A DNA stretch of 64,000 nucleotides, from the NCBI GenBank assembly GCA_035291225.1, contig DATDSO010000004.1, positions 331,130 to 395,129 of the forward strand, given 5' to 3'. The stretch is from an archaeon. GTDB lineage: Archaea; Aenigmatarchaeota; Aenigmatarchaeia; Aenigmatarchaeales; JACQIB01. The notes under the pieces are model-generated. The model worked only from the letters and a program-made list of their open reading frames with translations, made no database searches and was not told the DNA's origin. Shown in pieces: positions 3,546 through 64,000 of this stretch (positions are counted from its first letter, which is position 1; each line of letters begins with the position of its first letter). The translations under genes and the position numbers were made by a program.

Positions 3546-4250
3546 ATGCTCTCCGACTCTGATATGATTTCGCTGATGGTCAACGAGCCCAGCTGGGAGG
3601 ATGTGATTGTCCGAATAGTCGCGGAGGAGGGAATGGACCCGTGGGCTGTGGATATCGTGAAACTTGCTGACGGGTTCGGAAAATATATGGAAAACCTGAG
3701 CGAGATTGATTTGAGAATTCCAGCGCGCTTTATTCTTGTTGCCGCAATTTTGCTGCGGATGAAATCAGATATTCTCGCTGGAAAAAAAGAAAGAAATATT
3801 CTGGAAAGCGAGGGCCCAAGAGAAGACAGATATGCGAAAATTGTTGCAATGCTTTCTCAAATTCCCCCGCTGCAGCCGCCAGTGAAAAGGCAGCCTTTGG
3901 GTTCTGTAACAATGGAAGAGCTGTTGACTGCGCTGAAAAAAGCATTTGAAGTTCAGGAAAGGAGAAAGGAAAGAAAATTAAAACTGCGCAGGATTGTTGA
4001 GCGCCATGTTGTTTTGCAGGCAGATGACATAAACGAGCGGATAGAAAATCTGATGGGGCAGATAAACAATATTCTTGCGGAGATTGAAGGCTCGGCAAAA
4101 TTTTCCTCTCTTGTAAAAAAATGGGACAGAGAAAATATTGTAAAAACTTTGATGCCAATGCTGCATTTGGAGCAGGACGGAAAGATTGAGACTGAGCAGA
4201 TGGTTTTGTTTGAGGAGATTGCTGTGAGGAGGAAAGTTAAGAAGGAATAA
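3546..4250 (+). CDS. scpA: Segregation and condensation protein A (ScpA kleisin)
   Basis: DPWAVDIVKLADGF...LRIPARFILVAAILLRMKSDIL matches the ScpA N-terminal motif; directly follows smc. Start chosen at first Met after smc stop (track ORF begins 3519). Confidence 0.75.
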   Translation: MLSDSDMISLMVNEPSWEDVIVRIVAEEGMDPWAVDIVKLADGFGKYMENLSEIDLRIPARFILVAAILLRMKSDILAGKKERNILESEGPREDRYAKIVAMLSQIPPLQPPVKRQPLGSVTMEELLTALKKAFEVQERRKERKLKLRRIVERHVVLQADDINERIENLMGQINNILAEIEGSAKFSSLVKKWDRENIVKTLMPMLHLEQDGKIETEQMVLFEEIAVRRKVKKE

Positions 4251-19262: not shown

Positions 19263-21038
19263 TTGATTATGAGAATAGCAGTCGTCGACCGAAGCCTCTG
19301 CAGGCCAGACAAGTGCCAGCACGAATGCATGAATGTTTGCCCGATAAATCGCGCGGGAGAAAATTGCATTTGGATTTCTGAAAGAACAGACGGGAAAAAA
19401 GCCGCAATCTCCGAAGAGCTTTGCATAGACTGCGGGCTTTGCATAAAAGCTTGCCCGTTTGGCGCAATTGAAATTGTCCACACCCCAGAGCAATTGAAAG
19501 AAAAACCAGTCCACCGCTTCGGAGAAAATCTTTTTGAATTATTCAGGCTGCCCTTTCCAATCAAAGGAGAAGTTGTTGGAATGCTCGGACCCAACGGAAC
19601 TGGAAAAACAACTGCGCTGAAAATTTTGTCCGGAGAAATAAAATCAAACTTGGGCGATTATGAAAGCGCTGGCGCGTCTGCCAGAGAATTAATAAAAATT
19701 TTCCGCGGAACCGAGCTGCAAATTTATTTGCAGCTCTTGGAAAAAGGTGGCGTGAAAACAGTTGTGAAGCCGCAGAAAATTGAAATGCTTTCGCAAGTTG
19801 AGGAAACAGCAGAAAATGTTTTGCGCAAGCATGACGAAAGAAAAATATTTTCAGATATTGTGAAAAAATTGCAATTGGAAAAAATTCTCAATAGAAAACT
19901 TTCTCAATTAAGCGGAGGAGAATTGCAGCGCATTGCAATTGCAATCGCTGCTTTGAGAAAAGCGGATTTCTATTTCATTGACGAGCCTTCAAATTATTTG
20001 GATGTTTACCAGAGATTGAACGCGGCAAAAGTTATTCGCGAGCTCGCAAAAGATTCTGCGGTTCTTGTAGTAGAGCATGACCTCGCAACTCTGGATTTTC
20101 TTGCTGACAGAATTCATGTTTTGTATGGCGTGCCGGGAGTTTATGGAATTGTTTCAGCAGCCTATGGAACGCGCGTGGGAGTGAATGCTTTTCTTGATGG
20201 ATACTTGAAAACAGAAAATATGCGCGTGCGATCTGAAGCATTGGATTTCACAAGCACAAAGCAAAAGGGCTCTGCGAAAAAAGAAATTTATTTGCAGTGG
20301 GAAAATCTGGAAAAAACTCTGGGCAATTTTGATCTTTCCATTGGAGTGGGCTCTGTATTCAAAGGAGAAGTTATTGGAATTTTCGGCGCGAATGGTTTGG
20401 GCAAAACAACTTTCGCAAAAATTCTCGCAGGCGAAATAAAAACTGACGCTGGAAAAATAACCAAGTCTGTGAAAATTTCCTACAAGCCCCAGTATATCAA
20501 AGCAGAGGGAGATGAAACAGTTTCTGAAATGCTTTCCTCAGAAACAAATATTTTTGCAGAGGACTTTAAGGCAATGATTTTGAAACCCTTGGGGATTGAA
20601 AAACTTTTGGAGAGAAAAGTTTCCGAGCTTTCCGGCGGAGAGCTGCAGGCTGTTGCGATTGCTCTCTGCCTTGGGAGAAAAGCTGATTTGTATTTGCTGG
20701 ACGAGCCTTCTGCTTTTCTTGACGCGGAAAAAAGGCTCGCCGCCGGCCGCGCAATAAGAAAATTCTGCGAGGCGCACGAATGCTCTGCGTTGATAATTGA
20801 CCACGACTTGCTTTTTTTGAGCTATCTGGCAGACCGCGCAATTGTTTTTTCTGGAATTTCTGCGGAAAAAGGAACTGCCGAGCAAATGGACTTGCAGGCG
20901 GGCTTCAACAAATTTTTGCGCGAGGTGGACATAACTTTCAGAAGAGACCCGCAAACAATGCGGCCGCGCGCGAATAAGCCGGGCTCGCAGAAAGATTTGA
21001 AGCAGAAAGCTGAGGGAAAATATTTTGTTGTTGAGTGA
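19263..21038 (+). CDS. abcE1: ABCE1 / RNase L inhibitor homologue (ribosome recycling ATPase)
   Basis: N-terminal double 4Fe-4S cysteine clusters (CRPDKCQHECMNVCP, CIDCGLCIKACP) followed by two ABC domains (GPNGTGKTT, LSGGELQ twice). Confidence 0.9.
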   Translation: MIMRIAVVDRSLCRPDKCQHECMNVCPINRAGENCIWISERTDGKKAAISEELCIDCGLCIKACPFGAIEIVHTPEQLKEKPVHRFGENLFELFRLPFPIKGEVVGMLGPNGTGKTTALKILSGEIKSNLGDYESAGASARELIKIFRGTELQIYLQLLEKGGVKTVVKPQKIEMLSQVEETAENVLRKHDERKIFSDIVKKLQLEKILNRKLSQLSGGELQRIAIAIAALRKADFYFIDEPSNYLDVYQRLNAAKVIRELAKDSAVLVVEHDLATLDFLADRIHVLYGVPGVYGIVSAAYGTRVGVNAFLDGYLKTENMRVRSEALDFTSTKQKGSAKKEIYLQWENLEKTLGNFDLSIGVGSVFKGEVIGIFGANGLGKTTFAKILAGEIKTDAGKITKSVKISYKPQYIKAEGDETVSEMLSSETNIFAEDFKAMILKPLGIEKLLERKVSELSGGELQAVAIALCLGRKADLYLLDEPSAFLDAEKRLAAGRAIRKFCEAHECSALIIDHDLLFLSYLADRAIVFSGISAEKGTAEQMDLQAGFNKFLREVDITFRRDPQTMRPRANKPGSQKDLKQKAEGKYFVVE

Positions 21039-21130
21039 AAGTGGAGAACTTCTCTCAAATTATGTGTCGTAGAAAAATTCCGCCGCTAAAAATTTCTGGC
21101 GTATTTATTTTTTCTTTTCACACACCAGTT

Positions 21131-21163
21131 GCGAGCGCGTTTGAGTTTACTCAACGCGCGAGC
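21131..21163. repeat. GC-rich palindromic intergenic repeat, copy 1
   Basis: gcgagcgcgtttgagtttactcaacgcgcgagc; first 20 nt recur in reverse complement at 38170-38204 with one mismatch. Confidence 0.55.
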
Positions 21164-21166
21164 TTA

Positions 21167-21961
21167 TCAGCTCCCTGTGCTTGAATAATGCTTCAGCCCG
21201 AATTTCCAAAAGCTGTATGCAACTGCGAAAGAAATTATTGCGACAAGCGGCGAAAGATATTGGAGCTGAGGCCAGATTCCTTTTCCTAAAATTGCGGCAG
21301 CTGGGAAATAATTTACGAAAGCGAGTGGCATGATAAAAGTCAGGAATGCCTTAATGTATTTATTGAAAATTTCCAAAGGGTAGTTTGTAAAATTTCCTGT
21401 TATCCAAACAATTTCAGTAATTGGACCGATTCTTGTTGTCCAGAACGCGAGCGTCGCTATTGCAAGAAAAATTGAATAAATTATCAGAGAGCCGCTTAAA
21501 AGAAAAATAGCAAGAGCGAAAAGCTTTTCCACGCTCCACACAACGCTAACAATTGGCATGCTTATTGCCAGCAAAGCAATTCCGCTTAATAAATCCCCAA
21601 ATCCATGTGTGTCAAAAGTAGAAATCATCATATATTTTATCGGCTTCATTGGCTGAACAAGAACTCTGTCAAGGCTGCCGCTGCGCACAGCTTCTTCAAC
21701 GCGCCAAGGAACTGTCCCTTTAAGAAAAGTATTCCACACTCCCCACGCAAAAACTTCAAGCGCGTATAGGAATAATAGCTCTTCCAATGTCCAGCCATTT
21801 ATATTTGGAATATTTTGCATAATAACCCAATAGAATAGGACGCCTATTACATTTGTGAGAACAAGCGCAAAAATTCCCAAAAAGAAATCTTCCGCATATT
21901 GAAAATCTTCGGCAATTCGCGCAACTGCAAATTTTTTCCACAACCTGAAAGTTTTTAACAT
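21167..21961 (-). CDS. ABC-2 type transporter permease subunit
   Basis: Polytopic membrane protein in operon with a second permease and an ABC ATPase; start set at internal Met (track ORF extends to 22006). Confidence 0.6.
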   Translation of the reverse strand: MLKTFRLWKKFAVARIAEDFQYAEDFFLGIFALVLTNVIGVLFYWVIMQNIPNINGWTLEELLFLYALEVFAWGVWNTFLKGTVPWRVEEAVRSGSLDRVLVQPMKPIKYMMISTFDTHGFGDLLSGIALLAISMPIVSVVWSVEKLFALAIFLLSGSLIIYSIFLAIATLAFWTTRIGPITEIVWITGNFTNYPLEIFNKYIKAFLTFIMPLAFVNYFPAAAILGKGIWPQLQYLSPLVAIISFAVAYSFWKFGLKHYSSTGS

Positions 21962-22044
21962 TTCAACCACCCCCCGAGGAGGGCTCCGCCCTCCTTCTGG
22001 GTTCATTCTCCCGAATTTCTGCTTCGCAAAATATAATTTTCATT

Positions 22045-36067: not shown

Positions 36068-37252
36068 ATGCGCCTCTACGAATTTGAAAGCAAGCAAATG
36101 CTGAAAAAAAATGGAATAAAAATTCCGCAGTCAGTTCTTTCCACTTCTGCGATTTCTGAAATCCCGTTCAACAGCGAAATTGCTGTGAAAGCCCAAGTGC
36201 TTTCTAATGGAAGGGGAAAAGCTGGCGGAGTGAAAGTTTTTTCCAGCCCAGAGGAAGCGAAAAATTTTGCGAACTCTTTGCTCGGCTCGGTTTTGCTGAA
36301 AGAAAAAGTGAAGTCTGTTTTGATTGAAAAGAAAATTAAAACAAAAAACGAATTCTACATAAGCTTTGCTTATGACACTGACACGCAGCTGCCGGTTTTG
36401 GTTTTGAGCAAATCCGGCGGAGTGGATGTCGCCGAGCTAACAAAAAACAGCTGGCTTGCGAAAATTCCCATTGACCCTTTGCTTGGGCTGAAAGAGTGGC
36501 AGGCGAGAGATGCTGCTGTTGACGCAGGATTCGCAAGCGAGCTGATTCCAAAAATTTCTGATTTTGCCTTGAGGCTTTACAATGTTTTCTCATCAGAGGA
36601 CTGCAGGCTTTTGGAAATAAATCCGCTGAGCCTGACAGAAGAAGGAGAGCTTGTTGCAGTCGGCGCGCTTATAGATTTGGACAACGATGCGGGCTATAAG
36701 CACAAGGAAAGAAATTATCCGCCGCGCATGCCCGGAGTTGGACGCGAACTTACAGACGGAGAAATGCTTGTGAAAAAATCTGACGAGGCAGATTACCGCG
36801 GCTCAATAAAATTTATTGAGCTCGGCGGAGAAATTGGATTTCTCGCAGCAGGTGGGGGCGGGAGCATGGCTGCGATGGACGCTTTAATTATTGCCGGAGG
36901 AAATCCCGCGAACTATGCGGAATTTTCCGGAGACCCGCCGAAAGAAAAAGTCTACGCGCTCGCGAAAGCAATTCTCTCGCAGAAAAATTTGGCCGGCTTG
37001 TGGATTGTCGGGGCAATTGCAAATTTCACGCGCATGGACCAGACAATGCAGGGAGTTGTTGAAGCCCTGAGAGAAGCAAAGCCAAAATATCCGATTGTTG
37101 TTCGGCGCTCGGGCCCGTATGAAAAAGAAGGATTGCAAATGCTGAAAGATGTTGGGGTCGAGCTCGGGCTTGACATTGAAGTGCACGGCTCTGAAGTTTC
37201 AATGACAGCGACTGCGAAGACAATTGCGGAGAAAGTTAAAAAACAAAAATGA
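36068..37252 (+). CDS. Succinyl-CoA synthetase beta-like ATP-grasp subunit (possible citryl-CoA synthetase / ACL beta)
   Basis: ATP-grasp N-terminus (QVLSNGRGKAGGVKV) and CoA-ligase C-terminus (GFLAAGGGGSMAAMD...GGNPANYAEF); start set at first Met after upstream stop. Confidence 0.75.
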   Translation: MRLYEFESKQMLKKNGIKIPQSVLSTSAISEIPFNSEIAVKAQVLSNGRGKAGGVKVFSSPEEAKNFANSLLGSVLLKEKVKSVLIEKKIKTKNEFYISFAYDTDTQLPVLVLSKSGGVDVAELTKNSWLAKIPIDPLLGLKEWQARDAAVDAGFASELIPKISDFALRLYNVFSSEDCRLLEINPLSLTEEGELVAVGALIDLDNDAGYKHKERNYPPRMPGVGRELTDGEMLVKKSDEADYRGSIKFIELGGEIGFLAAGGGGSMAAMDALIIAGGNPANYAEFSGDPPKEKVYALAKAILSQKNLAGLWIVGAIANFTRMDQTMQGVVEALREAKPKYPIVVRRSGPYEKEGLQMLKDVGVELGLDIEVHGSEVSMTATAKTIAEKVKKQK

Positions 37253-38163
37253 TTTTTATGAGCATTCTAATAAACAAAGAAACAAAAGTTTTAATTCAGG
37301 GAATTACTGGACGCAGCGGGCAGGTTGCGCTCCACACAATGAAAGAATACGGGACAAAAGTTTTGGCAGGTGTGACTCCGGGGAAGGGTGGGCAGGAAGT
37401 TGAAGGGGTTCCGGTTTTCAATTCAGTTCACGAGGCTTTGAAAAAATTTCCGGAAATAAATTGCTCAGCAATTTATGTTCCGCCCGCAGCTTGCCGCGAG
37501 GCAGTGATTGAGGCGGTTTCAAATGGAATTAAATTGGTGAATGTAATTACAGAAGGAGTTGCGATTCAGGACACGGTTCAAATGCTGCGCTACGCAAAAC
37601 TTTATGGAGCGCGAATTGTCGGGCCATCTTCAATTGGAATTTTAACTCCGAAGCAATGCAAGATTGGAGTTCTCGGCGGCTCTGCTGTGGACACTGACAA
37701 AATTTATTTTCCCGGAAGCATTGGAGTGATTTCGAAAAGCGGAGGCATGACAAATGAAACTGCATGGGTTGTGCGTTCAGCTGGATTGGGCCAGTCAACT
37801 GTTGTTGGAATTGGCGGGGATGTGATTTTGGGAACTGATTTTGTGGATTTGCTGAAAATGTTTGAGGCAGACAAGGAAACAAAAGGGGTTGTAATTTTCG
37901 GAGAGCCTGGCGGGACTTATGAGGACAAGATTGCCGAGGCTGTCAGGAAAAAAGAATTCACAAAACCGATTGCTGCTTTTATTGCAGGAGTTTTCGCCGA
38001 GAGGCTTCCGCACGGAACGCAGTTCGGCCACGCGGGCGCGCTGATTGAAAATGGAAGGGGCTCGCCTGTGCAGAAAATTAAAATTTTGAAAGAGGCTGGG
38101 GTTTTAATTGCGGAAACGCATGATATGTTGGGGGAGGTTATAAAAAGAGCTATTGAAAATTAA
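37249..38163 (+). CDS. Succinyl-CoA synthetase alpha-like CoA-binding subunit
   Basis: KVLIQGITGRSGQ CoA-binding start and phosphohistidine loop GTQFGHAGA. Confidence 0.8.
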   Translation: MIFMSILINKETKVLIQGITGRSGQVALHTMKEYGTKVLAGVTPGKGGQEVEGVPVFNSVHEALKKFPEINCSAIYVPPAACREAVIEAVSNGIKLVNVITEGVAIQDTVQMLRYAKLYGARIVGPSSIGILTPKQCKIGVLGGSAVDTDKIYFPGSIGVISKSGGMTNETAWVVRSAGLGQSTVVGIGGDVILGTDFVDLLKMFEADKETKGVVIFGEPGGTYEDKIAEAVRKKEFTKPIAAFIAGVFAERLPHGTQFGHAGALIENGRGSPVQKIKILKEAGVLIAETHDMLGEVIKRAIEN

Positions 38164-38169
38164 TTAAAG

Positions 38170-38268
38170 GGCTCGCAGGTTTTCGTAAACTCAAACCCGC
38201 TCGCGACTAATGTGGAATAAAAATATTTTCACACATTAGTTAGCGAGGCTCATGGGTTTACCCTGAGC
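38170..38268. other. Structured intergenic region: GC-rich repeat copy 2 plus two stem-loops
   Basis: ggctcgcaggttttcgtaaactcaaacccgctcgc (38170-38204); inverted repeats actaatgtg/cacattagt (38207-38240) and gctcatggg/accctgagc (38248-38268). Confidence 0.5.
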
Positions 38269-38296
38269 CGAGCAAATCAAAATAAGTTGTGATAAC

Positions 38297-39025
38297 ATGA
38301 AATGGAAAACAAAAATTTCAGATGCGAACGATGAAGGCACAAAGATTAGAGGAAAAGCTCTTGAAGAGCTTGTGGGAAAAATTTCCTATGCTGAAATGGT
38401 TTTTCTTTTGCTGCGCGGAAAAATGCCAACGCCTGAAGAAAGCAAAATGATGGAAGCGCTTTTGGTTTGCGTGGCAGAGCACAGCATTGCTGTTCCTTCT
38501 ATAACTGCTGCGCGCATAGCAGCGAGCGGCTCGGGAAGTTTTGTGCAGGGAGTTGCCGCAGGAATTTTGGGAATAGGCGAGCACCACGGAGGCGCAGGCG
38601 AGGGCTGCGCAAAAGTTCTGCAGGAAAATTTGGGAAAGCCTGCTGCTGAAGTTGTCGCAAAATTTTCCGCGAGAAAAGAAAGGCTGCCGGGCTTTGGGCA
38701 CAAAATTTATACAACAGACCCGCGCACGAAAAAACTTTTTTCAATTGCAAAAGAGCTTGGGATTTTTGGGAGCTACTGCAATTTTGCGCTTGAGCTCGAA
38801 AAAGAATTGGAGCGCGCGGGTGGAAAAAAACTCTGCCTTAATGTTGACGGCGCGATTGCCGCAATAATTTCTGAAATGGGATTCCACTGGAAAAGCGGCC
38901 GCGCGTTTTTTGTGATTCCGCGCACAGCAGGAATTTCCGCGCATGTTATTGAGGAACTGATGGAGGAGAAGCCGTTTTCAAAAAGATTGGAAGAGGGGGA
39001 ATATGAATATTTGGGGGAGAAATAA
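38297..39025 (+). CDS. Citrate synthase-fold small protein (citryl-CoA lyase-like)
   Basis: GEHHGGAGEG (cf. GPLHGGANE) and PGFGHKIYTTDPR (citrate synthase signature); 242 aa, like short stand-alone citryl-CoA lyases. Confidence 0.65.
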   Translation: MKWKTKISDANDEGTKIRGKALEELVGKISYAEMVFLLLRGKMPTPEESKMMEALLVCVAEHSIAVPSITAARIAASGSGSFVQGVAAGILGIGEHHGGAGEGCAKVLQENLGKPAAEVVAKFSARKERLPGFGHKIYTTDPRTKKLFSIAKELGIFGSYCNFALELEKELERAGGKKLCLNVDGAIAAIISEMGFHWKSGRAFFVIPRTAGISAHVIEELMEEKPFSKRLEEGEYEYLGEK

Positions 39026-39028
39026 TTT

Positions 39029-39664
39029 CTATTCAATATTTTCTTCAATTATTCTTCTGATAGCTTTCTTAACAAGCTCTTGATTTTGCGGTGGAACACG
39101 CAGCGCATTTTCTAAAGCATCTCTAAGATAAGACGGGGGCTCTGTTATAATAGGCTGTGTTCCAGATAAACTATAAGGTTCCTGAGAGGCAACTCCGCCA
39201 ACAATCACACCTTCAGGCACTCCAGAATATGCTGCATCTCTTAGAACTCTCGGCAGGTGATCCGGATTGCTCACAAAAAATACTGCCTGTTTATCTTTGC
39301 CTCCGCGAAGGGCTGCAGCAGTGCTTTCTTCTGTAGTAGTTCCGCGGGTTTCAAAATTTATAGTGTAATTTTCCAACCCAGGAAACGCTTCTCTCGCATA
39401 TTCGTAGAAAGCTGCAGTTTCCAAAACCCCCTCATGCTTTAAGCCCCCTGCAATAGTTATGTCAACTTCAAAACCGCGGCCGCTTAAAAATTCTGCCAAC
39501 TCCAAAGCAGTTCTGGTTCTATCGTAGACAACATCTTCCCAAGGCCTGAAGCCTTCTGGAACCGGCTTGGCATAGCCGCACAAAACTATTCTAACACCAC
39601 GTTTCATATTTACTATATTGGGGTAACTAATATATAAATGCCTCTCCAACCAAATGCCCTCCAT
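39029..39664 (-). CDS. Hypothetical protein, possibly DUF218 (YdcF/ElyC)-like
   Basis: Weak resemblance (VRIVLCGYA, TINFETRGTTTEES) to DUF218; start probably at internal Met. Confidence 0.4.
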   Translation of the reverse strand: MEGIWLERHLYISYPNIVNMKRGVRIVLCGYAKPVPEGFRPWEDVVYDRTRTALELAEFLSGRGFEVDITIAGGLKHEGVLETAAFYEYAREAFPGLENYTINFETRGTTTEESTAAALRGGKDKQAVFFVSNPDHLPRVLRDAAYSGVPEGVIVGGVASQEPYSLSGTQPIITEPPSYLRDALENALRVPPQNQELVKKAIRRIIEENIE

Positions 39665-39889
39665 CTATTTTAGAAATCTTCATCTCTACAAATTTTCTCA
39701 ACAAACAAAGTCTAATTACTTTTTCTCCTCTTTTTCTAAAAGTCTTGAGGCTAGAGAATATAAATGTGTTGGGGAGAAATAATATTTATAAAGATTGAAT
39801 TTCATTTCTTGCAGTGATTAAATGTTTAAATCTGCTTTTTAAAGCTCTGCAAAAGTTAGATTTATAAATATGAAATTCCAAGTAAAATT

Positions 39890-40522
39890 ATGACAGGATA
39901 TATGGGAAAAGGCGCGCAAAAAGTTAAAGATGCTCTAATGCGTGGAGCGTCTGGTGTAAAAATATATGGCGCGTCCGCTGTAAAATCTGTTTTTTCTTAC
40001 AGGCCTGAGATTGGCGCAATTCGTGGAATTGCTTCGCAAGTGTCTGGGACAGTTGAAGTTCTCAAAGCTGCTTATGATAGGACCCGCAAAGATGCAGATG
40101 GATATAGCAAAGATTCTAACTGGGTTTTTGATCATTCTATGAAAAGCAGAGAAGCTGGTGACACGCTTCATGCTCGGGAACAGGAGGCTGTTGCCAGAAA
40201 TCTACACAAGAGAGCTGCTGAGTTTTATAGAGAAGCTGACGCTTTTGGAGGTGCGAAAAGCAGCGTCGGTATTGTGAAATCTAGCTTAGAAGGGCTACAA
40301 AAACAAATTCCAAAAGTTAGTGATATAAAAAGTGCGGCAGCGGTTATTGGTGCTATACAATCTGCGAGAGAAAATGCCGGAGTCTTAGCTCAACTTCCAG
40401 ACCCGCGCCTTGCCGGGCAATATAGCAGAGTTTCTGTAGAATTGGCTGGAGTTGAAAGAGATTTAATGGGAAAATTTGGGAAGAGATTTGGCTTAACAGA
40501 ACATTATTTAAAAACTCATTGA
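39890..40522 (+). CDS. Hypothetical Ala/Gly-rich protein (210 aa)
   Basis: Intact ORF preceded by a 225 nt AT-rich gap; composition differs from neighbours; no motif. Confidence 0.4.
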   Translation: MTGYMGKGAQKVKDALMRGASGVKIYGASAVKSVFSYRPEIGAIRGIASQVSGTVEVLKAAYDRTRKDADGYSKDSNWVFDHSMKSREAGDTLHAREQEAVARNLHKRAAEFYREADAFGGAKSSVGIVKSSLEGLQKQIPKVSDIKSAAAVIGAIQSARENAGVLAQLPDPRLAGQYSRVSVELAGVERDLMGKFGKRFGLTEHYLKTH

Positions 40523-52286: not shown

Positions 52287-52568
52287 GGGCTCGTGGTCTA
52301 GTCCATCCCTTCTTTCTTTTTCCGAAAGAAGAGCTTCAAAAAAGAAAGAAGCGATAGGTTTTCGGAAGAAAGAAAAAGACGGATGGAGAAATTGGAATGA
52401 AGCGCCCGCGCTTCAGCACGGGAAGAGCTTCAACACAATGACGCGACGTTCGCAACGTCGAAGCCGTGGGTTCAAACCCAAGCCTTTTTCGTGAAAAAGG
52501 CTAGGGCTTATCCAAAAAAGCAGATAGCCGCTTCGCGGGTATATCAGAAATTCCCACCGAGTCCACCA
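52287..52568 (+). tRNA. tRNA-Ala (anticodon CGC) with T-loop intron and a long unresolved D-region insertion; encoded CCA
   Basis: Acceptor GGGCUCG/CGAGUCC with G3:U70, A73-CCA; anticodon arm CGACG-UUCGCAA-CGUCG (52444-52460); T-stem GUGGG/CCCAC split by 52477-52551; D-stem GUCU/UGAC split by about 135 nt. Confidence 0.6.
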
Positions 52569-52934: not shown

Positions 52935-53123
52935 TGGTGGGCGGGCAGAGATTTCCGAACCGCGGAAACCTAAGGTTTCCTCAGTTCAAGGTTTTTCCTG
53001 ATCCTTCCTCAGGTTCTTGCTTCGCAATTATTTTATTTGAACTCTGGACCCCCACATTATCAGTGTGGTGCTCGTTGGCATTTTTCTTTTTAGAAAAATT
53101 TAACCAGGCTGAGCCACCCGCCC
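52935..53123 (-). tRNA. tRNA-Ile (anticodon GAU) with D-loop and T-loop introns; encoded CCA
   Basis: Minus strand: GGGCGGG-U-G-GCUC-AGCCUGGUUA, 27 nt insert, GAGC; anticodon arm CCACA-CUGAUAA-UGUGG; T-stem CAGAG/CUCUG split by about 84 nt; acceptor 3' CCCGCCC-A-CCA. Confidence 0.65.
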
Positions 53124-53172: not shown

Positions 53173-55056
53173 TTATTTCAACCTAACCGTCTCCAACAAC
53201 CTCGGCGCCAGCGTCTCGCACTTGAAAATCCTGTGTGCATTCCGCGCGAACTCAATGCACTTCATAGCCTCTCCGTGGTTTGCAATAATTCTCTCAGGAT
53301 TGTTTCGCAATTTTCCAATATAGTTCATCAGCTGTTTGTAATCAGAATGCCCAGACAACCCGTCCATTGTTAGAACTTCCATATTCAGCGGAACAGATTT
53401 TGTGCGGCCGTCAATTTCCATAGGCACTTCCTTGTAGCCTTTTTGTATTTTCCTCCCAAGGGAATTTTCAGCCTGCCAGCCCACAAAAATTATCATATTT
53501 TTTTTGTCCTCAGCAAAAGCCTTGAAATAATTTACAGCCGGTCCTCCAGTCAGCATTCCGCTTGTTGAAATCACAACAGCTGGGTCGCTTGAGTCAATGA
53601 TTTTTTTCCTCTCAGTTTCCGAGCCAACTCTTTTGAAAAAATTTTGCGTGAAAGGATTCCATCCCTCAACCAGAATTTTTCTCTGCATCTCGCGGCTCAT
53701 GAACTCTGGATATGTAGTATGCAAAGCAGAAACATCCCAAATCATTCCGTCTAAATAAATTGGAATATCCAAATTCGCCATTGCAAGAATAACTTGAATA
53801 TCCTGCGCGCGCTGGACTGCGAAAGAAGGAATCAAAACTTTTCCATTTCGCGCAATTGCTTTTTTCACAGCATTTACTAATCCAGCTTCAGCTTCATCGC
53901 GCCGCGGCTGAATATCTTCAGGCAAACCATAAGTGCTTTCTGTAATTACAGTTTCAGCTCGCGCGAAATCATGGCTCGCGGGATCATACAAAAGCGTGCG
54001 GTCAAATTTTAAATCTCCTGTGTACAAAACATTATGCAATCCATTTCCAATATGCACATGCACAAGCGAGCCTCCTAGAATATGCCCATCGTTCAAAAGT
54101 GTAAGCCGCATGTCTGGAGTTATGTCAGAAACTTCTCCCCAGTCTAATGGAACGCAATGCTTCACTGCTTCTGTAATTCCTTTTGTTGTGTATGGAAGCG
54201 GTCTGCCTTCTCTCTGTGCAATTTCAATCATGTCCATGCACATCATCACCATTAAATCCCGCGAAGGCTCTGTGAGGTAAAGCGGCGCCTCGCAGCCATA
54301 TTCATAAAGCCACGGAATAAATCCTGCGTGGTCCATGTGCGCGTGGCTCAAAACAACTGAATCCAGTTTTTGCAAATCAAATTCCGGAACTCCGAGATAA
54401 GGATAGTCAGTTGAGCCGCCGGGTTTTACCCCGCAGTCCATTAGAATTCTGGATTCAGGAGTTGAAAGCAAAACCGCAGAGCGACCAACTTCCCTGAACG
54501 CGCCAAGCGCAGTCATGCGAATCCAGTCAGTCGGCTTCCACCCGCCGTGAATTCTTTTTCCAACTTTGTTCAGAAAATCTTTTCTCCACTCGCTTTCCAT
54601 GTGAATTATTTTTCTCAAAGTTTTCACAACCTCGCTCGGAATCGCAGGCGCCCTTCTTACAACAGGAGTCCAGAAAATTTGCCTTTTGATTTCGCGCAGA
54701 ATTTCCCCGCCCGCGCCGATCGCAATTCCCGGCTTGTCAACTTCAATAATTGCAGTCCCAAATCCGGGCTCAAAAGAAATTTCCCGCAAGCCCGCTTCCT
54801 CGGGAATAATTTCCTGAATTGCTTTTTTCGCTTTTTCCACATCAGCCATTATGCTCGCGTCCGGCCGCAGGAGAATTCTTTTTTTGAGCTCCATGACTTT
54901 ATTTTTCAAAACATCTCCGGGCTCTGCAAAAAATTCCTTGCTCTTTGTGTAGAGAACAATTTCACATCCCTCATATTTTATGTCAGAAATATTTGCTCCG
55001 CTGGGCAGGCCTTCTTTTACTTTTTCAAATAATTCTTGTGTTGAGATTTCTACCAT
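53173..55056 (-). CDS. aCPSF1-type beta-CASP ribonuclease with N-terminal KH domains
   Basis: N-terminal KH region, metallo-beta-lactamase motif HAHMDHAG, beta-CASP and C-terminal His motifs; 627 aa. Confidence 0.9.
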   Translation of the reverse strand: MVEISTQELFEKVKEGLPSGANISDIKYEGCEIVLYTKSKEFFAEPGDVLKNKVMELKKRILLRPDASIMADVEKAKKAIQEIIPEEAGLREISFEPGFGTAIIEVDKPGIAIGAGGEILREIKRQIFWTPVVRRAPAIPSEVVKTLRKIIHMESEWRKDFLNKVGKRIHGGWKPTDWIRMTALGAFREVGRSAVLLSTPESRILMDCGVKPGGSTDYPYLGVPEFDLQKLDSVVLSHAHMDHAGFIPWLYEYGCEAPLYLTEPSRDLMVMMCMDMIEIAQREGRPLPYTTKGITEAVKHCVPLDWGEVSDITPDMRLTLLNDGHILGGSLVHVHIGNGLHNVLYTGDLKFDRTLLYDPASHDFARAETVITESTYGLPEDIQPRRDEAEAGLVNAVKKAIARNGKVLIPSFAVQRAQDIQVILAMANLDIPIYLDGMIWDVSALHTTYPEFMSREMQRKILVEGWNPFTQNFFKRVGSETERKKIIDSSDPAVVISTSGMLTGGPAVNYFKAFAEDKKNMIIFVGWQAENSLGRKIQKGYKEVPMEIDGRTKSVPLNMEVLTMDGLSGHSDYKQLMNYIGKLRNNPERIIANHGEAMKCIEFARNAHRIFKCETLAPRLLETVRLK

Positions 55057-55085: not shown

Positions 55086-55129
55086 GGCTCGCGCGCAGAG
55101 CAAGCTCATGCGCGCTCGCTATTGATATG
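55086..55129. repeat. GC-rich intergenic repeat, copy 3 (30-73 nt upstream of aCPSF1 start)
   Basis: ggctcgcgcgcagagcaagctcatgcgcgctcgctattgatatg; shares ggctcgc...cagagc...gcgcgct(t)cgctattgat[ag]tg with 63226-63280. Confidence 0.55.
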
Positions 55130-55325
55130 TAAAAAATATCCCCAAAAATTCTGTATGCAAAAATGTTTTTATTTTTTTCTCAGTAAATTTCAAAAAATCG
55201 TACTAAAAATTTACGTGTATGAGATTTAGATTTGCTGTAGTCTGCTTCAAGTAATCAGAATTTTCTAAAAGAATAATTGCAGAGGGGATTTATAAAGATT
55301 AGCCACGGTTGAGACCGACGGGACG

Positions 55326-55362
55326 TTCCTTCTATATTTTCCTTCTATATTTCCTTCTATAT
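55326..55362. repeat. Three tandem direct repeats of ttccttctatat
   Basis: Units at 55326-55337, 55339-55350, 55351-55362. Confidence 0.7.
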
Positions 55363-55646
55363 ATTATCTCAAGAACAGGTCCCCTACCGGCACGACGCGC
55401 CTCACTACTAAATTTATAATACTCCAAGCCTCTATAAATTACCTTATCAGCTCCGGACAAGAAAAGCGCATTATCGTCCCTCCGAAGATTAGGTTGAACA
55501 ATGTATTTTAAAAAGAGGATATTAGCATTCCCACTGCCGAACAAATATTTTAGGACTCTGACCTCCTCTGGAGTTTTTCTCATTTAAATCATTACTAATA
55601 GAAACTAAAAGCATTTAAAGCTATCTGCCGGCGCAGAAATCCGTGT

Positions 55647-55681
55647 TTCTAAAATTAGAAAATGAAATTCTAATTTTAGAA
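55647..55681. terminator. Perfect 14 bp inverted repeat downstream of psmB (terminator or binding site)
   Basis: ttctaaaattagaa (55647-55660) and its reverse complement ttctaattttagaa (55668-55681), 7 nt spacer. Confidence 0.4.
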
Positions 55682-55703
55682 AAAGGAAAAGGTTGGATAA
55701 AAT

Positions 55704-62845: not shown

Positions 62846-63184
62846 TTATTTCCTCAGAAATTCTTTTGCTTTTCTGTAAAGCCCCAAATCAAACCCGTCT
62901 AAATTCTGCACAACTTCCCCGCGCGCCTCAAATCCATTTGTGAGCGGAAGCACGCGCGTGATTACGCGCACAAGCTGGCCCTCGCGCAAATTCACCAACT
63001 GCTGCTGGTCATCAAAGAAAATTTCCAATTTTCCCGAGCCGTCATCAATTATCATCTCTCCCTCGCTGAGCGCGAGTATTGTTCCAAGAATCCGCACGCG
63101 AATGTCCTCGGGCTTTATTTCTTTTATTGTTTTTTCAGCGGCAGCAATTCTTCTTTGGGGCCGCTCGCCGTTGGGAGTTGGCAT
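62846..63184 (-). CDS. Hypothetical small protein, possibly OB-fold (112 aa)
   Basis: Intact ORF preceded by GC-rich repeat copy 4; beta-rich sequence pattern. Confidence 0.35.
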   Translation of the reverse strand: MPTPNGERPQRRIAAAEKTIKEIKPEDIRVRILGTILALSEGEMIIDDGSGKLEIFFDDQQQLVNLREGQLVRVITRVLPLTNGFEARGEVVQNLDGFDLGLYRKAKEFLRK

Positions 63185-63225: not shown

Positions 63226-63280
63226 GGCTCGCATCCAGAGCTCAGCGCGAGGTAAACCTGCGCGCTTCGCTATTGATGTG
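63226..63280. repeat. GC-rich intergenic repeat, copy 4 (42-96 nt upstream of the 62846-63184 gene)
   Basis: ggctcgcatccagagctcagcgcgaggtaaacctgcgcgcttcgctattgatgtg; shares both end motifs with copy 3. Confidence 0.55.
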
Positions 63281-63355
63281 TGGAAAGAAAAAAACAAAGA
63301 CTGAGATATTTTGGCGCAAAATTATTTTTGCAATACATATTGATATTCAAGTTCT

Positions 63356-64000
63356 TCATTTCAAAACTTCCCCAACCTCATCCGCGCCAATCAGCGGTTT
63401 AGAAAAATTCGCTCGGTCCTCCACTGCTATGCGAGGGCAGGCCGTGTTAATCCAGCAGTCAACTTCTAATCCCATTAATTTTGCCTCTGAGATTTCATCC
63501 AGTACAATTATGAACGCCTCCTTCCCAGCAGCTGTTAATTTTTTCTTTATTGCTTCCGCAAATTGGAGCGCGAGCTGGCCCTTTTTTGGAGAAATCAGAA
63601 TCCCAAATTTTTTTGCGTGTCGCGCGAGACCGATTGCCGCAAATTTTTGCTTCAAAAACTTTTGCTTTATCGGCTCCAAATCAAAAAATTTTCCCTGTGT
63701 TAAATCAATCGCAAACACGGGCTTGTTTTGCTTCATGTCCGCGCCCAGCGGGTGAAATTTTCCCGAGCCCACAAAAAGAAAGCAGTCAACAGAATTGTAA
63801 ATATTGCTTGCAGCCCCAACATCGCAGCCCAAAGTTTGCCCGCCGTGCATAATTTTCTGTGGGTCTGTGCTGGCAGAAATAAAAACTTTTTTCCCGCGGG
63901 CTTCTAAAAGTTTTTTTAGCGGCTCCAAATAGTCCAAATACTGCGCGCTTGTGAGCAGTCCGAAATTTTGGAATTTTTCAATTTTCTCCCAGCCTAATTC
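63356..64000 (-). CDS. dph2: Diphthamide synthesis protein Dph2-like radical-SAM enzyme; N-terminus lies beyond the window end
   Basis: C-terminal VDCWINTACPRIA block typical of Dph2; ORF open to the window edge. Confidence 0.7.
   Translation of the reverse strand, partial: ELGWEKIEKFQNFGLLTSAQYLDYLEPLKKLLEARGKKVFISASTDPQKIMHGGQTLGCDVGAASNIYNSVDCFLFVGSGKFHPLGADMKQNKPVFAIDLTQGKFFDLEPIKQKFLKQKFAAIGLARHAKKFGILISPKKGQLALQFAEAIKKKLTAAGKEAFIIVLDEISEAKLMGLEVDCWINTACPRIAVEDRANFSKPLIGADEVGEVLK

Follow-up and report, generated by a model that had tools for sequence, protein, structure and literature searches.

Palindromic repeats at gene boundaries of a DPANN-like archaeal genome are probably copies of a lineage-restricted, non-autonomous mobile family

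The Correia/NEMIS elements of Neisseria, the pneumococcal BOX elements, and the enterobacterial ERIC sequences are small modular MITE-like repeats, which are palindromic and 100–160 nt in length. Target-site duplications are not expected among insertions of the IS200/IS605 family. REP palindromes are distinguished by a conserved GTAG (or CGTC) tetranucleotide at one end (PMC3733652). In archaea, generic "REPs" and MITEs have already been reported (PMC12306157), and a census of MITEs found very high densities in some DPANN genomes (PMC11602168).

Five copies of one hairpin-forming repeat family, designated A, B1, B2, C, and D, were identified in the window, i.e., the whole 64,000-nt stretch of archaeal DNA analyzed here, which corresponds to a modest density of 5 modules per 64 kb. 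A covariance model built from nine copies (R1) returned exactly five matches of 56–76 bits in the window with filters off, and the best non-family match scored 14 bits (E ~0.65). The pattern GCTCGN{20,37}CGCTCGCNAYTRRTRTG was matched three times in the window and never in 100 shuffles. With copy A read on the minus strand, all copies share the register (G)GCTCG(C), variable hairpin, (G)CTCGC, [TA]A[CT]T[GA][GA]T[GA]TGTG, and an A-rich tract. Four of the sites had been described in the initial annotation (21131–21163, 38170–38204, 55086–55129, and 63226–63280) and are present in the sequence at those coordinates. The identity it gave of 19 of 20 nucleotides between 21131–21150 and the reverse complement of 38185–38204 is correct, as is the string ggctcgc...cagagc...gcgcgct(t)cgctattgat[ag]tg common to the latter two sites. 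Its description of related elements holds for a single family and not for two pairs, since all sites have one architecture; the count of four rises to five with B2 (38243–38273, minus strand), the overlooked tail-to-tail partner of B1. The sites are GC-rich as described, but the window has a GC content of 41.7% and many GC-rich coding patches, so that GC-richness by itself is not distinctive for the repeat sites and the sequence pattern is diagnostic. The features of the copies are as follows.

21131..21163, minus strand: GC module of copy A (R1 score 76.1 bits), with GCTCGC, the hairpin GCGCG-TT-GAG-TAAA-CTC-A-AA-CGCGC (21135–21159), and GCTCGC; it starts 3 nt past the in-frame TGA-TAA of the ABC-2 permease gene at 21167–22006 (minus strand; Pfam ABC2_membrane_6).
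21119..21130, minus strand: tail of copy A, AACTGGTGTGTG, aligned with the conserved tail.
21040..21118, no strand: rest of composite unit A, from the ten-locus alignment, the terminator-like scan, and the flank listing.
21084..21101: small AT-rich hairpin with a GC clamp, which with an A-run belongs to unit A; its T-run is on the plus strand and it is terminator-like.
21057..21070: degenerate inverted tail of unit A, CAAATTATGTGTCG.
21043..21054: outer motif of unit A, GGAGAACTTCTC, abutting the stop of ABCE1 (19263–21038, plus strand).
38171..38204, plus strand: GC module of copy B1 (56 bits), which has a weaker stem and belongs to the "GTTTTCG-TAAA-CTCAAAC" sub-family; 7 nt separate it from the preceding stop of the citryl-CoA synthetase alpha-like gene at 37249–38163 (plus strand).
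38205..38215, plus strand: tail of B1, GACTAATGTGG.
38216..38229: A/T-rich centre of pair B (14 nt), AATAAAAATATTTT, between the two tails.
38230..38273, minus strand: copy B2 (60.3 bits), with the tail at 38230–38242, the GC module at 38243–38273, and the hairpin GGCTCA-GGG-TAAA-CCC-A-TGAGCC; its head is 23 nt from the ATG of citryl-CoA lyase (ccl, 38297–39025, plus strand).
38274..38296, plus strand: A-rich leader AAATCAAAATAAGTTGTGATAAC, which separates the head of B2 from the ATG of ccl and includes GTGAT, similar to a Shine-Dalgarno sequence.
55087..55130, plus strand: copy C (70.5 bits), with the GC module at 55087–55119, the hairpin GCGCGCA-GAG-CAAG-CTC-A-TGCGCGC, and the tail TATTGATATGT at 55120–55130; its head is 29 nt from the ATG of aCPSF1/FttA (53173–55056, minus strand; Pfam), with a GGTGA Shine-Dalgarno sequence in between.
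63226..63283, plus strand: copy D (60.8 bits), with the head GGCTCGC at 63226–63232, a 12-nt insert after the head that is missing from the orthologue L091, the hairpin GCGCG-AGG-TAAA-CCT-G-CGCGC at 63245–63265, TTCGC at 63266–63270, and the tail TATTGATGTGTGG at 63271–63283; its head is 41 nt from the ATG of a 112-aa gene (62846–63184, minus strand), just upstream of a conserved TATA-like block.
63284..63363: rest of composite unit D, with an A-run, an AT-rich middle segment, and a T-run (minus-strand reading).
63332..63345: inverted tail of unit D, AATACATATTGATA.
63346..63363: outer motif of unit D, TTCAAGTTCTTCATTTCA, which includes the stop codon of dph2 (63356–63937, minus strand).

Each copy is composed of a GC module of 33–45 nt (GCTCGC, an irregular hairpin, and GCTCGC), followed by the conserved tail TRTYRRTRTGTG and an A/T-rich tract. 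The canonical copies all share one hairpin layout: a tetraloop closed by G-C, 3 bp, a 1-nt bulge, 6–7 bp, a tandem C·T/T·C mismatch, and 2 bp (GC). It follows from this layout that the apparent direct repeat GCTCGC...GCTCGC represents the helix foot plus the tandem mismatch. The tetraloop is of the form YAAR (mostly TAAA, sometimes CAAG), the bulged base is A in 15 copies and G in seven, and variants of the tail include TGATGT, TGGTGT, TAATGT, and CAATAT. In a sub-family formed by B1, L005:5159, L005:1094, L095:857, and L154:467, the same TC/TC mismatch is placed directly below the loop; the B1 type recurs at L005:5159–5211. Read on the complementary strand, the mismatch is a tandem G·A/A·G, and in all 29 of the copies this strand gives the more stable fold, a bias that is systematic and not independent evidence, as the mismatch is common to all copies. 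Counts of G·U versus A·C pairs for the folded strand included too few informative cases, with one forward-strand wobble each in L124 and L153 and one A·C in B1.

Among the nine copies, 94% of the cells in the stem were paired and 7 of the 10 pairs showed compensatory changes on both sides. The covariation score was reached in none of 500 shuffles, with no slid register near it, and the pairing and the covariation also hold on 22 distinct copies. The folding and covariation analysis proposed in the initial annotation thus bears out the hairpin. Gene conversion or repair from a template can, however, keep quasi-palindromes perfect, and paired changes in the stem therefore need not mean selection on RNA.

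An alignment of ten loci revealed that the copies are usually part of a palindromic composite unit of 110–150 nt. Within it, the GC module and its tail come first, followed by an A-run, a small AT-rich hairpin clamped by GC, a T-run, the tail in inverted form, and the outer motif GTTCTTCATTT. In some units a second GC module is present in the opposite arm (a "pair"), and in others, such as units A and D, that arm is hairpin-less. In pairs, the terminal inverted repeats are bounded by the GCTCG...CGAGC heads, with the inverted tails inside. Pair B folds into a 4-way junction with z = -5.45 versus shuffled controls, and A/T-rich centres like that of pair B are found in the pairs of L005, L095, L147, L151, and L154. 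The distance from the GC hairpin to the nearest T-run is ~18–40 nt, and the central AT-rich hairpin was terminator-like in unit A but not in unit D. The tail motif was not found in the other intergenic regions of the window and occurs at the element loci only, which excludes a generic terminator or promoter signal of the lineage within the window.

Beyond the window, 24 further copies were found in relatives and other archaeal MAGs, for a total of 29 aligned copies, all of which are intergenic. A search with a strict pattern in one genome per species (185,579 species) identified 74 loci. Three of these are in a single archaeal MAG, CAZROS01, and show no flanking similarity to the window; the other 71, judged by their record titles, look like the chance palindromes expected in GC-rich bacteria, with only L059 confirmed as noise by the model. 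A 6.6-kb contig of CAZROS01 with a ribosomal-protein operon contains five copies. A hairpin-only pattern identified 69 metagenome loci, where 10 were true copies, all from the JGI samples Ga0209541/2, and 59 were GC-rich bacterial palindromes by chance. No match was found among the IMG/VR viral contigs, and a viral origin was accordingly set aside. Tail-to-tail pairs were identified in the window (B) and in L095, L147, L151/152, and L154, with two pairs in L005, and unrelated loci as well as different genomes share the same discrete types of stem. Among the matches listed, the nearest named homologues of the citryl-CoA lyase of the window belong to the Micrarchaeota, Nanoarchaeota, Woesearchaeota, and Diapherotrites, and those of the CAZROS S3 protein to the Aenigmarchaeota, indicating that the hosts are DPANN-like.

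Comparisons of orthologous sites revealed both filled and empty junctions. The ccsA|ccl junction carries a pair in the window, L151/L152, L153, L147, and L146. In L148 (Ccl 80% identical), the ccsA stop is adjacent to the ccl ATG with 0 nt in between (...GCGATTTAAATGGTA...) and no element, and in L149/L150 (Ccl 66%) the two genes are spaced by 14 nt, also without an element. Similarly, elements are found at rpl2|rps19, rpl22|rps3, and rpl24|rps4e in L005 and at rpl2|rps19 in L154, and the same three junctions in L155 (S3 82%) and L156 (S3 67%) are 0–8 nt long or overlapping. Since these junctions are tight in relatives and filled in this clade, the element was inserted at the stop/start boundaries of previously tight and presumably co-transcribed operons. 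A splitting of an ATP-citrate-lyase alpha gene by pair B was considered and rejected: all 120 of the listed homologues of 38297–39025 are stand-alone citryl-CoA lyases, nearly all of 240–290 aa, and with stand-alone enzymes as the rule, pair B split an operon junction and not a gene. No direct duplication of at least 3 nt was seen by eye at seven pair boundaries, whose exact positions are uncertain, or in the filled/empty comparisons. No fixed target sequence was seen either, as the 5' flanks of the heads vary (TAA, AAG, AAT, ACA, GGA, and others).

Where the element is retained, its stems diverge rapidly and yet stay paired. Copy C is identical at 52 of 52 positions in L097, a ~92% relative. 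Copy D has an orthologue at the same place in L091 (81% relative), where the upper and middle stem and the tail differ with the differences paired, compared with 22 of 22 identical positions in the flanking promoter-like block. At the B junction of five relatives, the stems of both arms differ in each, with almost all differences paired; in L151 (Ccl 94% identical), for example, the stem is GCATGCA-GAG-TAAA-CTC-T-TGCATGC. Overall, the orthologous D and B stems changed by paired substitutions against flanks that are 80–100% conserved. At rpl2|rps19, the two arms are swapped between L005 and L154 (S3 94% identical).

Other insertions were noted at the same junctions. In L146, a different 58-nt palindrome (TGACTTTATGCGATGTGA...TCACATCGAATAAAGTCA; 3877–3935) is nested in the E2 hairpin; it contains tail-like CGATGTGA motifs and may represent a second small repeat family or a hairpin-less form of the same one. 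Extra genes occur in L147 (2490–3539, 349 aa) and L154 (1379–1927, 182 aa), neither with a Pfam match on record, at ccsA|ccl and rpl22|rps3, junctions that carry the repeat in sister genomes. Both junctions seem to be hot spots for DNA acquisition. The 349-aa gene beside the L147 pair was considered as a mobilizing enzyme and dismissed, as it has no Pfam match and no similarity to a 345-aa unknown protein near D.

The head of the module is always beside a gene, either 0–16 nt past a same-strand stop (8–9 copies) or 21–41 nt from a divergent start codon (10 copies), as would be expected if the unit itself creates the intergenic region. Units A and D, pair B, and copy C fill four of the ~ten largest intergenic gaps in a very compact window, and an element is present at only four of its ~35–40 gene boundaries. 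As the initial annotation had noted, C and D are upstream of minus-strand genes; the distances measured to the respective ATGs are 29 nt and 41 nt. The aCPSF1 identity of the gene beside C is backed by Pfam matches, while the 112-aa gene beside D matched no Pfam family, so that the earlier label of OB-fold-like is unsupported. The neighboring genes are unrelated in function and include an ABC permease, ccsA/ccl, aCPSF1, dph2, ribosomal proteins, and a putative thermosome gene (N-terminal sequence by eye). Both orientations relative to transcription are about equally frequent, and no promoter (BRE/TATA) was found at a fixed distance from the copies. An A-rich GTGAT leader is frequent between the head and the downstream ATG. 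Leaders at the non-orthologous L146 ccl and L005 rps19 are similar to each other, and the leader is missing from empty sites, which suggests that it travels with the unit; judging from these sequences, the leader at 38274..38296 probably belongs to the inserted unit.

The promoter-like flank AACCTTTAAATACCTTGTATACTTACATATACAGGAAAT precedes the module in two JGI contigs (L131, 4640–4700; L110, 166–235). In L131, a whole composite unit lies between this flank and the GGAGGT-ATG of a probable thermosome gene, recognized by eye from its N-terminal sequence, and in the much shorter L110 no downstream gene is identifiable.

Bacterial REP/BIME/REPIN sequences (E. coli, Pseudomonas) are similarly short, GC-rich, imperfect intergenic palindromes that often directly follow stop codons; at 33–35 nt, the archaeal module falls within the 20–40 nt typical of REP. 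The likeness extends to the occurrence in both orientations, the frequent inverted tail-to-tail pairs of two sub-types with a short linker, the conserved helix irregularities, and singlets that resemble decayed doublets; by analogy, it may also include co-transcription with the neighbors. The archaeal repeat differs from REP in its host, in an extra conserved 12-nt tail, and in a larger modular unit of 110–150 nt. Neither GTAG nor CGTC is present at the foot of its hairpin, where both ends are GCTCGC, and no RAYT (Y1 transposase) was found in the ORFs adjoining the copies across ~200 kb of the clade. In addition, the hairpins of a pair lack complementarity to one another, so that the archaeal doublet, unlike that of REP, cannot form one long hairpin.

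The inverted arms and the mosaic make-up with optional modules are shared with Correia/NEMIS, BOX, ERIC, and prokaryotic MITEs. Further resemblances to small MITEs are the location at gene boundaries and within operons, the promoter-, terminator-, and RBS-like tracts, and a presence that differs between close relatives. In contrast to MITEs, no target-site duplication was seen, and the termini are structured hairpins and not simple TIRs. No parent IS with matching ends was found in the part of the clade covered. The bulges and mismatches of the irregular hairpins are of the kind recognized as single-stranded DNA in the IS200/IS605-derived PATEs, and the lack of a visible target-site duplication is also as expected for that family. 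However, the hairpins at IS200/IS605 ends are in direct orientation on one strand, whereas the archaeal arms are inverted, and neither a TnpA/TnpB gene nearby nor a conserved 4–5-nt target 5' of the insertion was found. Integron attC sites also share some features, being imperfect palindromes of 60–140 nt directly after ORFs with extra-helical bases, and extra genes are found at two junctions here (L147 and L154). Unlike attC, the repeats are flanked by core housekeeping operons and not cassettes, lack an R/L box organization, and include isolated single arms, and neither an integrase nor an array was found. More generally, no transposase, Y1/HUH enzyme, or integrase was identified by Pfam among the ORFs adjoining the copies in the ~200 kb examined.

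The dispersal of the copies, the inverted doublets of two sub-types, the filled and empty sites, the nesting, the swapping of arms, and the common sub-families together point to a non-autonomous mobile palindromic repeat. The sites are probably copies of such a repeat, restricted to this lineage and similar to REP/BIME/REPIN or to small modular MITEs, which lands at gene boundaries and is probably co-transcribed with its neighbors. Its presence at unrelated loci in several genomes and its capacity to carry nested insertions were directly observed. Weighing against this reading are the modest density of modules in the window, the lack of a transposase-like Pfam match among the ORFs adjoining copies in the ~200 kb examined, and the lack of a visible target-site duplication or fixed target. 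The initial annotation had offered miniature repeat elements as one of three possibilities, and this one was borne out: the copies are dispersed and occur in either orientation and as inverted pairs, orthologous sites are filled in some genomes and empty in others, one copy carries a nested insertion, and sub-families are common to loci and genomes. Two arms facing tail to tail, or one arm facing a hairpin-less arm, usually form the palindrome of 110–150 nt that fills the whole intergenic space. The copies may spread via a single-stranded or cruciform intermediate recognized by a putative enzyme. Selection for recognition by that enzyme could keep the stems complementary, as could gene conversion or repair templated by the palindrome. 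After insertion, the unit would be co-transcribed with its neighbors and may be tolerated within operons by supplying hairpins, U-runs, and the A-rich GTGAT leader. Any effect on the ends or stability of mRNAs would be secondary. The strictly conserved bulge, mismatch, and loop suggest recognition by a protein.

A possible but clearly less favored explanation is a host-selected cis-acting RNA element, such as a stabilizer in 3'-UTRs or between cistrons, a processing site, or, with the U-runs, a bidirectional terminator or "punctuation", for which the repeat nature would be secondary; as an exaptation, it is compatible with a mobile origin. A host function would fit the identity of copy C in the ~92% relative and the strict conservation of bulge, tandem mismatch, and tetraloop, which extends over 29 copies. 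The more stable fold of the strand with the tandem G·A in every copy, the z score of pair B, the positions directly after stops or 21–41 nt before starts, the middle of the unit that resembles a hairpin plus T-run in both directions, and the tolerance of copies in a ribosomal-protein operon are also in its favor. Against these, the same junctions in close relatives are 0–14 nt long without an element, and only four of the ~35–40 gene boundaries of the window carry one, with the tail motif absent from the other intergenic regions. The roughly equal use of both orientations, the faster turnover of the stems than of the flanks, and the persistence of degenerate and interrupted copies also argue against a host-selected element. 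A more speculative combination, which is doubtful, is a portable "operon-punctuation" element with precise stop/start insertion, its own U-run terminator and GTGAT leader, and an irregular hairpin recognized by a protein. In that case, the tandem G·A, the one-base bulge, and a UUUA loop on the best-folding strand would be the features recognized, and the candidate recognizer might be an archaeal transposase of a new kind that acts on single-stranded DNA, or else a factor that binds or processes RNA and now controls mRNA ends in these reduced genomes.

The two other possibilities raised initially, small structured RNAs and a lineage-specific regulatory motif, are unlikely as independent genes and as a DNA operator, respectively. 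Small non-coding RNA genes with their own promoters, C/D-box-like or other, are highly improbable: stable covarying hairpins are indeed present, C and D are antisense to flanking genes, and the tail UGAUGU resembles a C box, with a CUGA 25 nt downstream in D, but the C- and D-box-like letters are not conserved among copies, Rfam gave no family at its gathering threshold and nothing but noise at the permissive one (E up to 10), and the heads abut stops of coding genes and have no conserved BRE/TATA at constant spacing. Such genes would also not typically show insertion polymorphism or nested insertions. What stands of that proposal is the hairpin itself, which is real and could act within mRNAs. 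Least probable of all is a double-stranded operator to which a dimeric transcription factor would bind, upstream of minus-strand genes. The sequence is palindromic, and C, D, and B2 are 21–41 nt upstream of starts beside TATA-like sequences. However, the arms covary and keep complementarity instead of sequence, about half of the copies follow stop codons, the same promoters occur in near relatives without the element, and the functionally unrelated neighbors and the origin of the sites by insertion into tight operons do not fit a regulon.

Several known elements were also considered and rejected. Split tRNA halves or tRNA-like genes were discarded as ARAGORN called none at the sites and the architecture is unfit, and known RNA families by the Rfam result given above. 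C/D-box sRNAs do not agree with a variable tail, no conserved CUGA, and no Rfam match. K-turns, archaeal SECIS elements, and ORB (origin) boxes were dropped because the letters diagnostic of them vary between copies, a 3-nt bulge is missing beside the G·A pairs, and the copies are scattered among housekeeping genes.

Additional features were observed in the region. A tRNA-Ile(GAU) gene at 52935–53123 (minus strand) contains two non-canonical inserts, of ~25 nt in the D-loop and 92 nt in the T-loop, and encodes its CCA; it was missed by ARAGORN and Rfam in the raw sequence, and ARAGORN calls tRNA-Ile (gat) with the inserts removed in silico. A second probable intron-rich tRNA gene, which is putative, is found at 52287–52568 (plus strand), with the 5' sequence GGGCTCGTGGTCTAGT..., the 3' sequence ...CCCACCGAGTCCACCA, ~200 nt inserted, a TTTAAAT box ~25 nt upstream, and no Rfam match at a permissive threshold. 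The aCPSF1/FttA orthologue of L097 (5–2671) has 889 aa compared to 627 aa in the window (53173–55056), and carries an intein with a LAGLIDADG homing-endonuclease domain (Pfam Intein_splicing, LAGLIDADG_3) at the position of 54021/54022, where the allele of the window is intein-free. Adjoining copy C, a stretch of 488 bp (55213–55700) includes an 83-aa ORF without a Pfam match (55332–55583) and is missing from L097, which has only 13 nt between the flanking homologous blocks. A 58-nt direct repeat unrelated to the GC module (38975–39032 and 39732–39789; 74% identical; TTTTC.AAAAG...GGGGAGAAATAAT.T.TAT) has one copy overlapping the 3' end of ccl and the other in a 226-nt gap before 39890–40522.

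The filled and empty sites document a probably active REP/MITE-like family in the very small and gene-dense genomes of uncultured DPANN-like archaea, where the repeats split tight housekeeping operons, including a ribosomal-protein operon, without destroying them. Such repeats probably fragment the MAG assemblies of this clade and can be mistaken for regulatory motifs or sRNA genes, while they also offer a strain-level marker. The strictly conserved helix irregularities point to a specific binding protein as a candidate, and if that protein is a transposase acting on hairpins, REP/RAYT-like biology would be extended to archaea.
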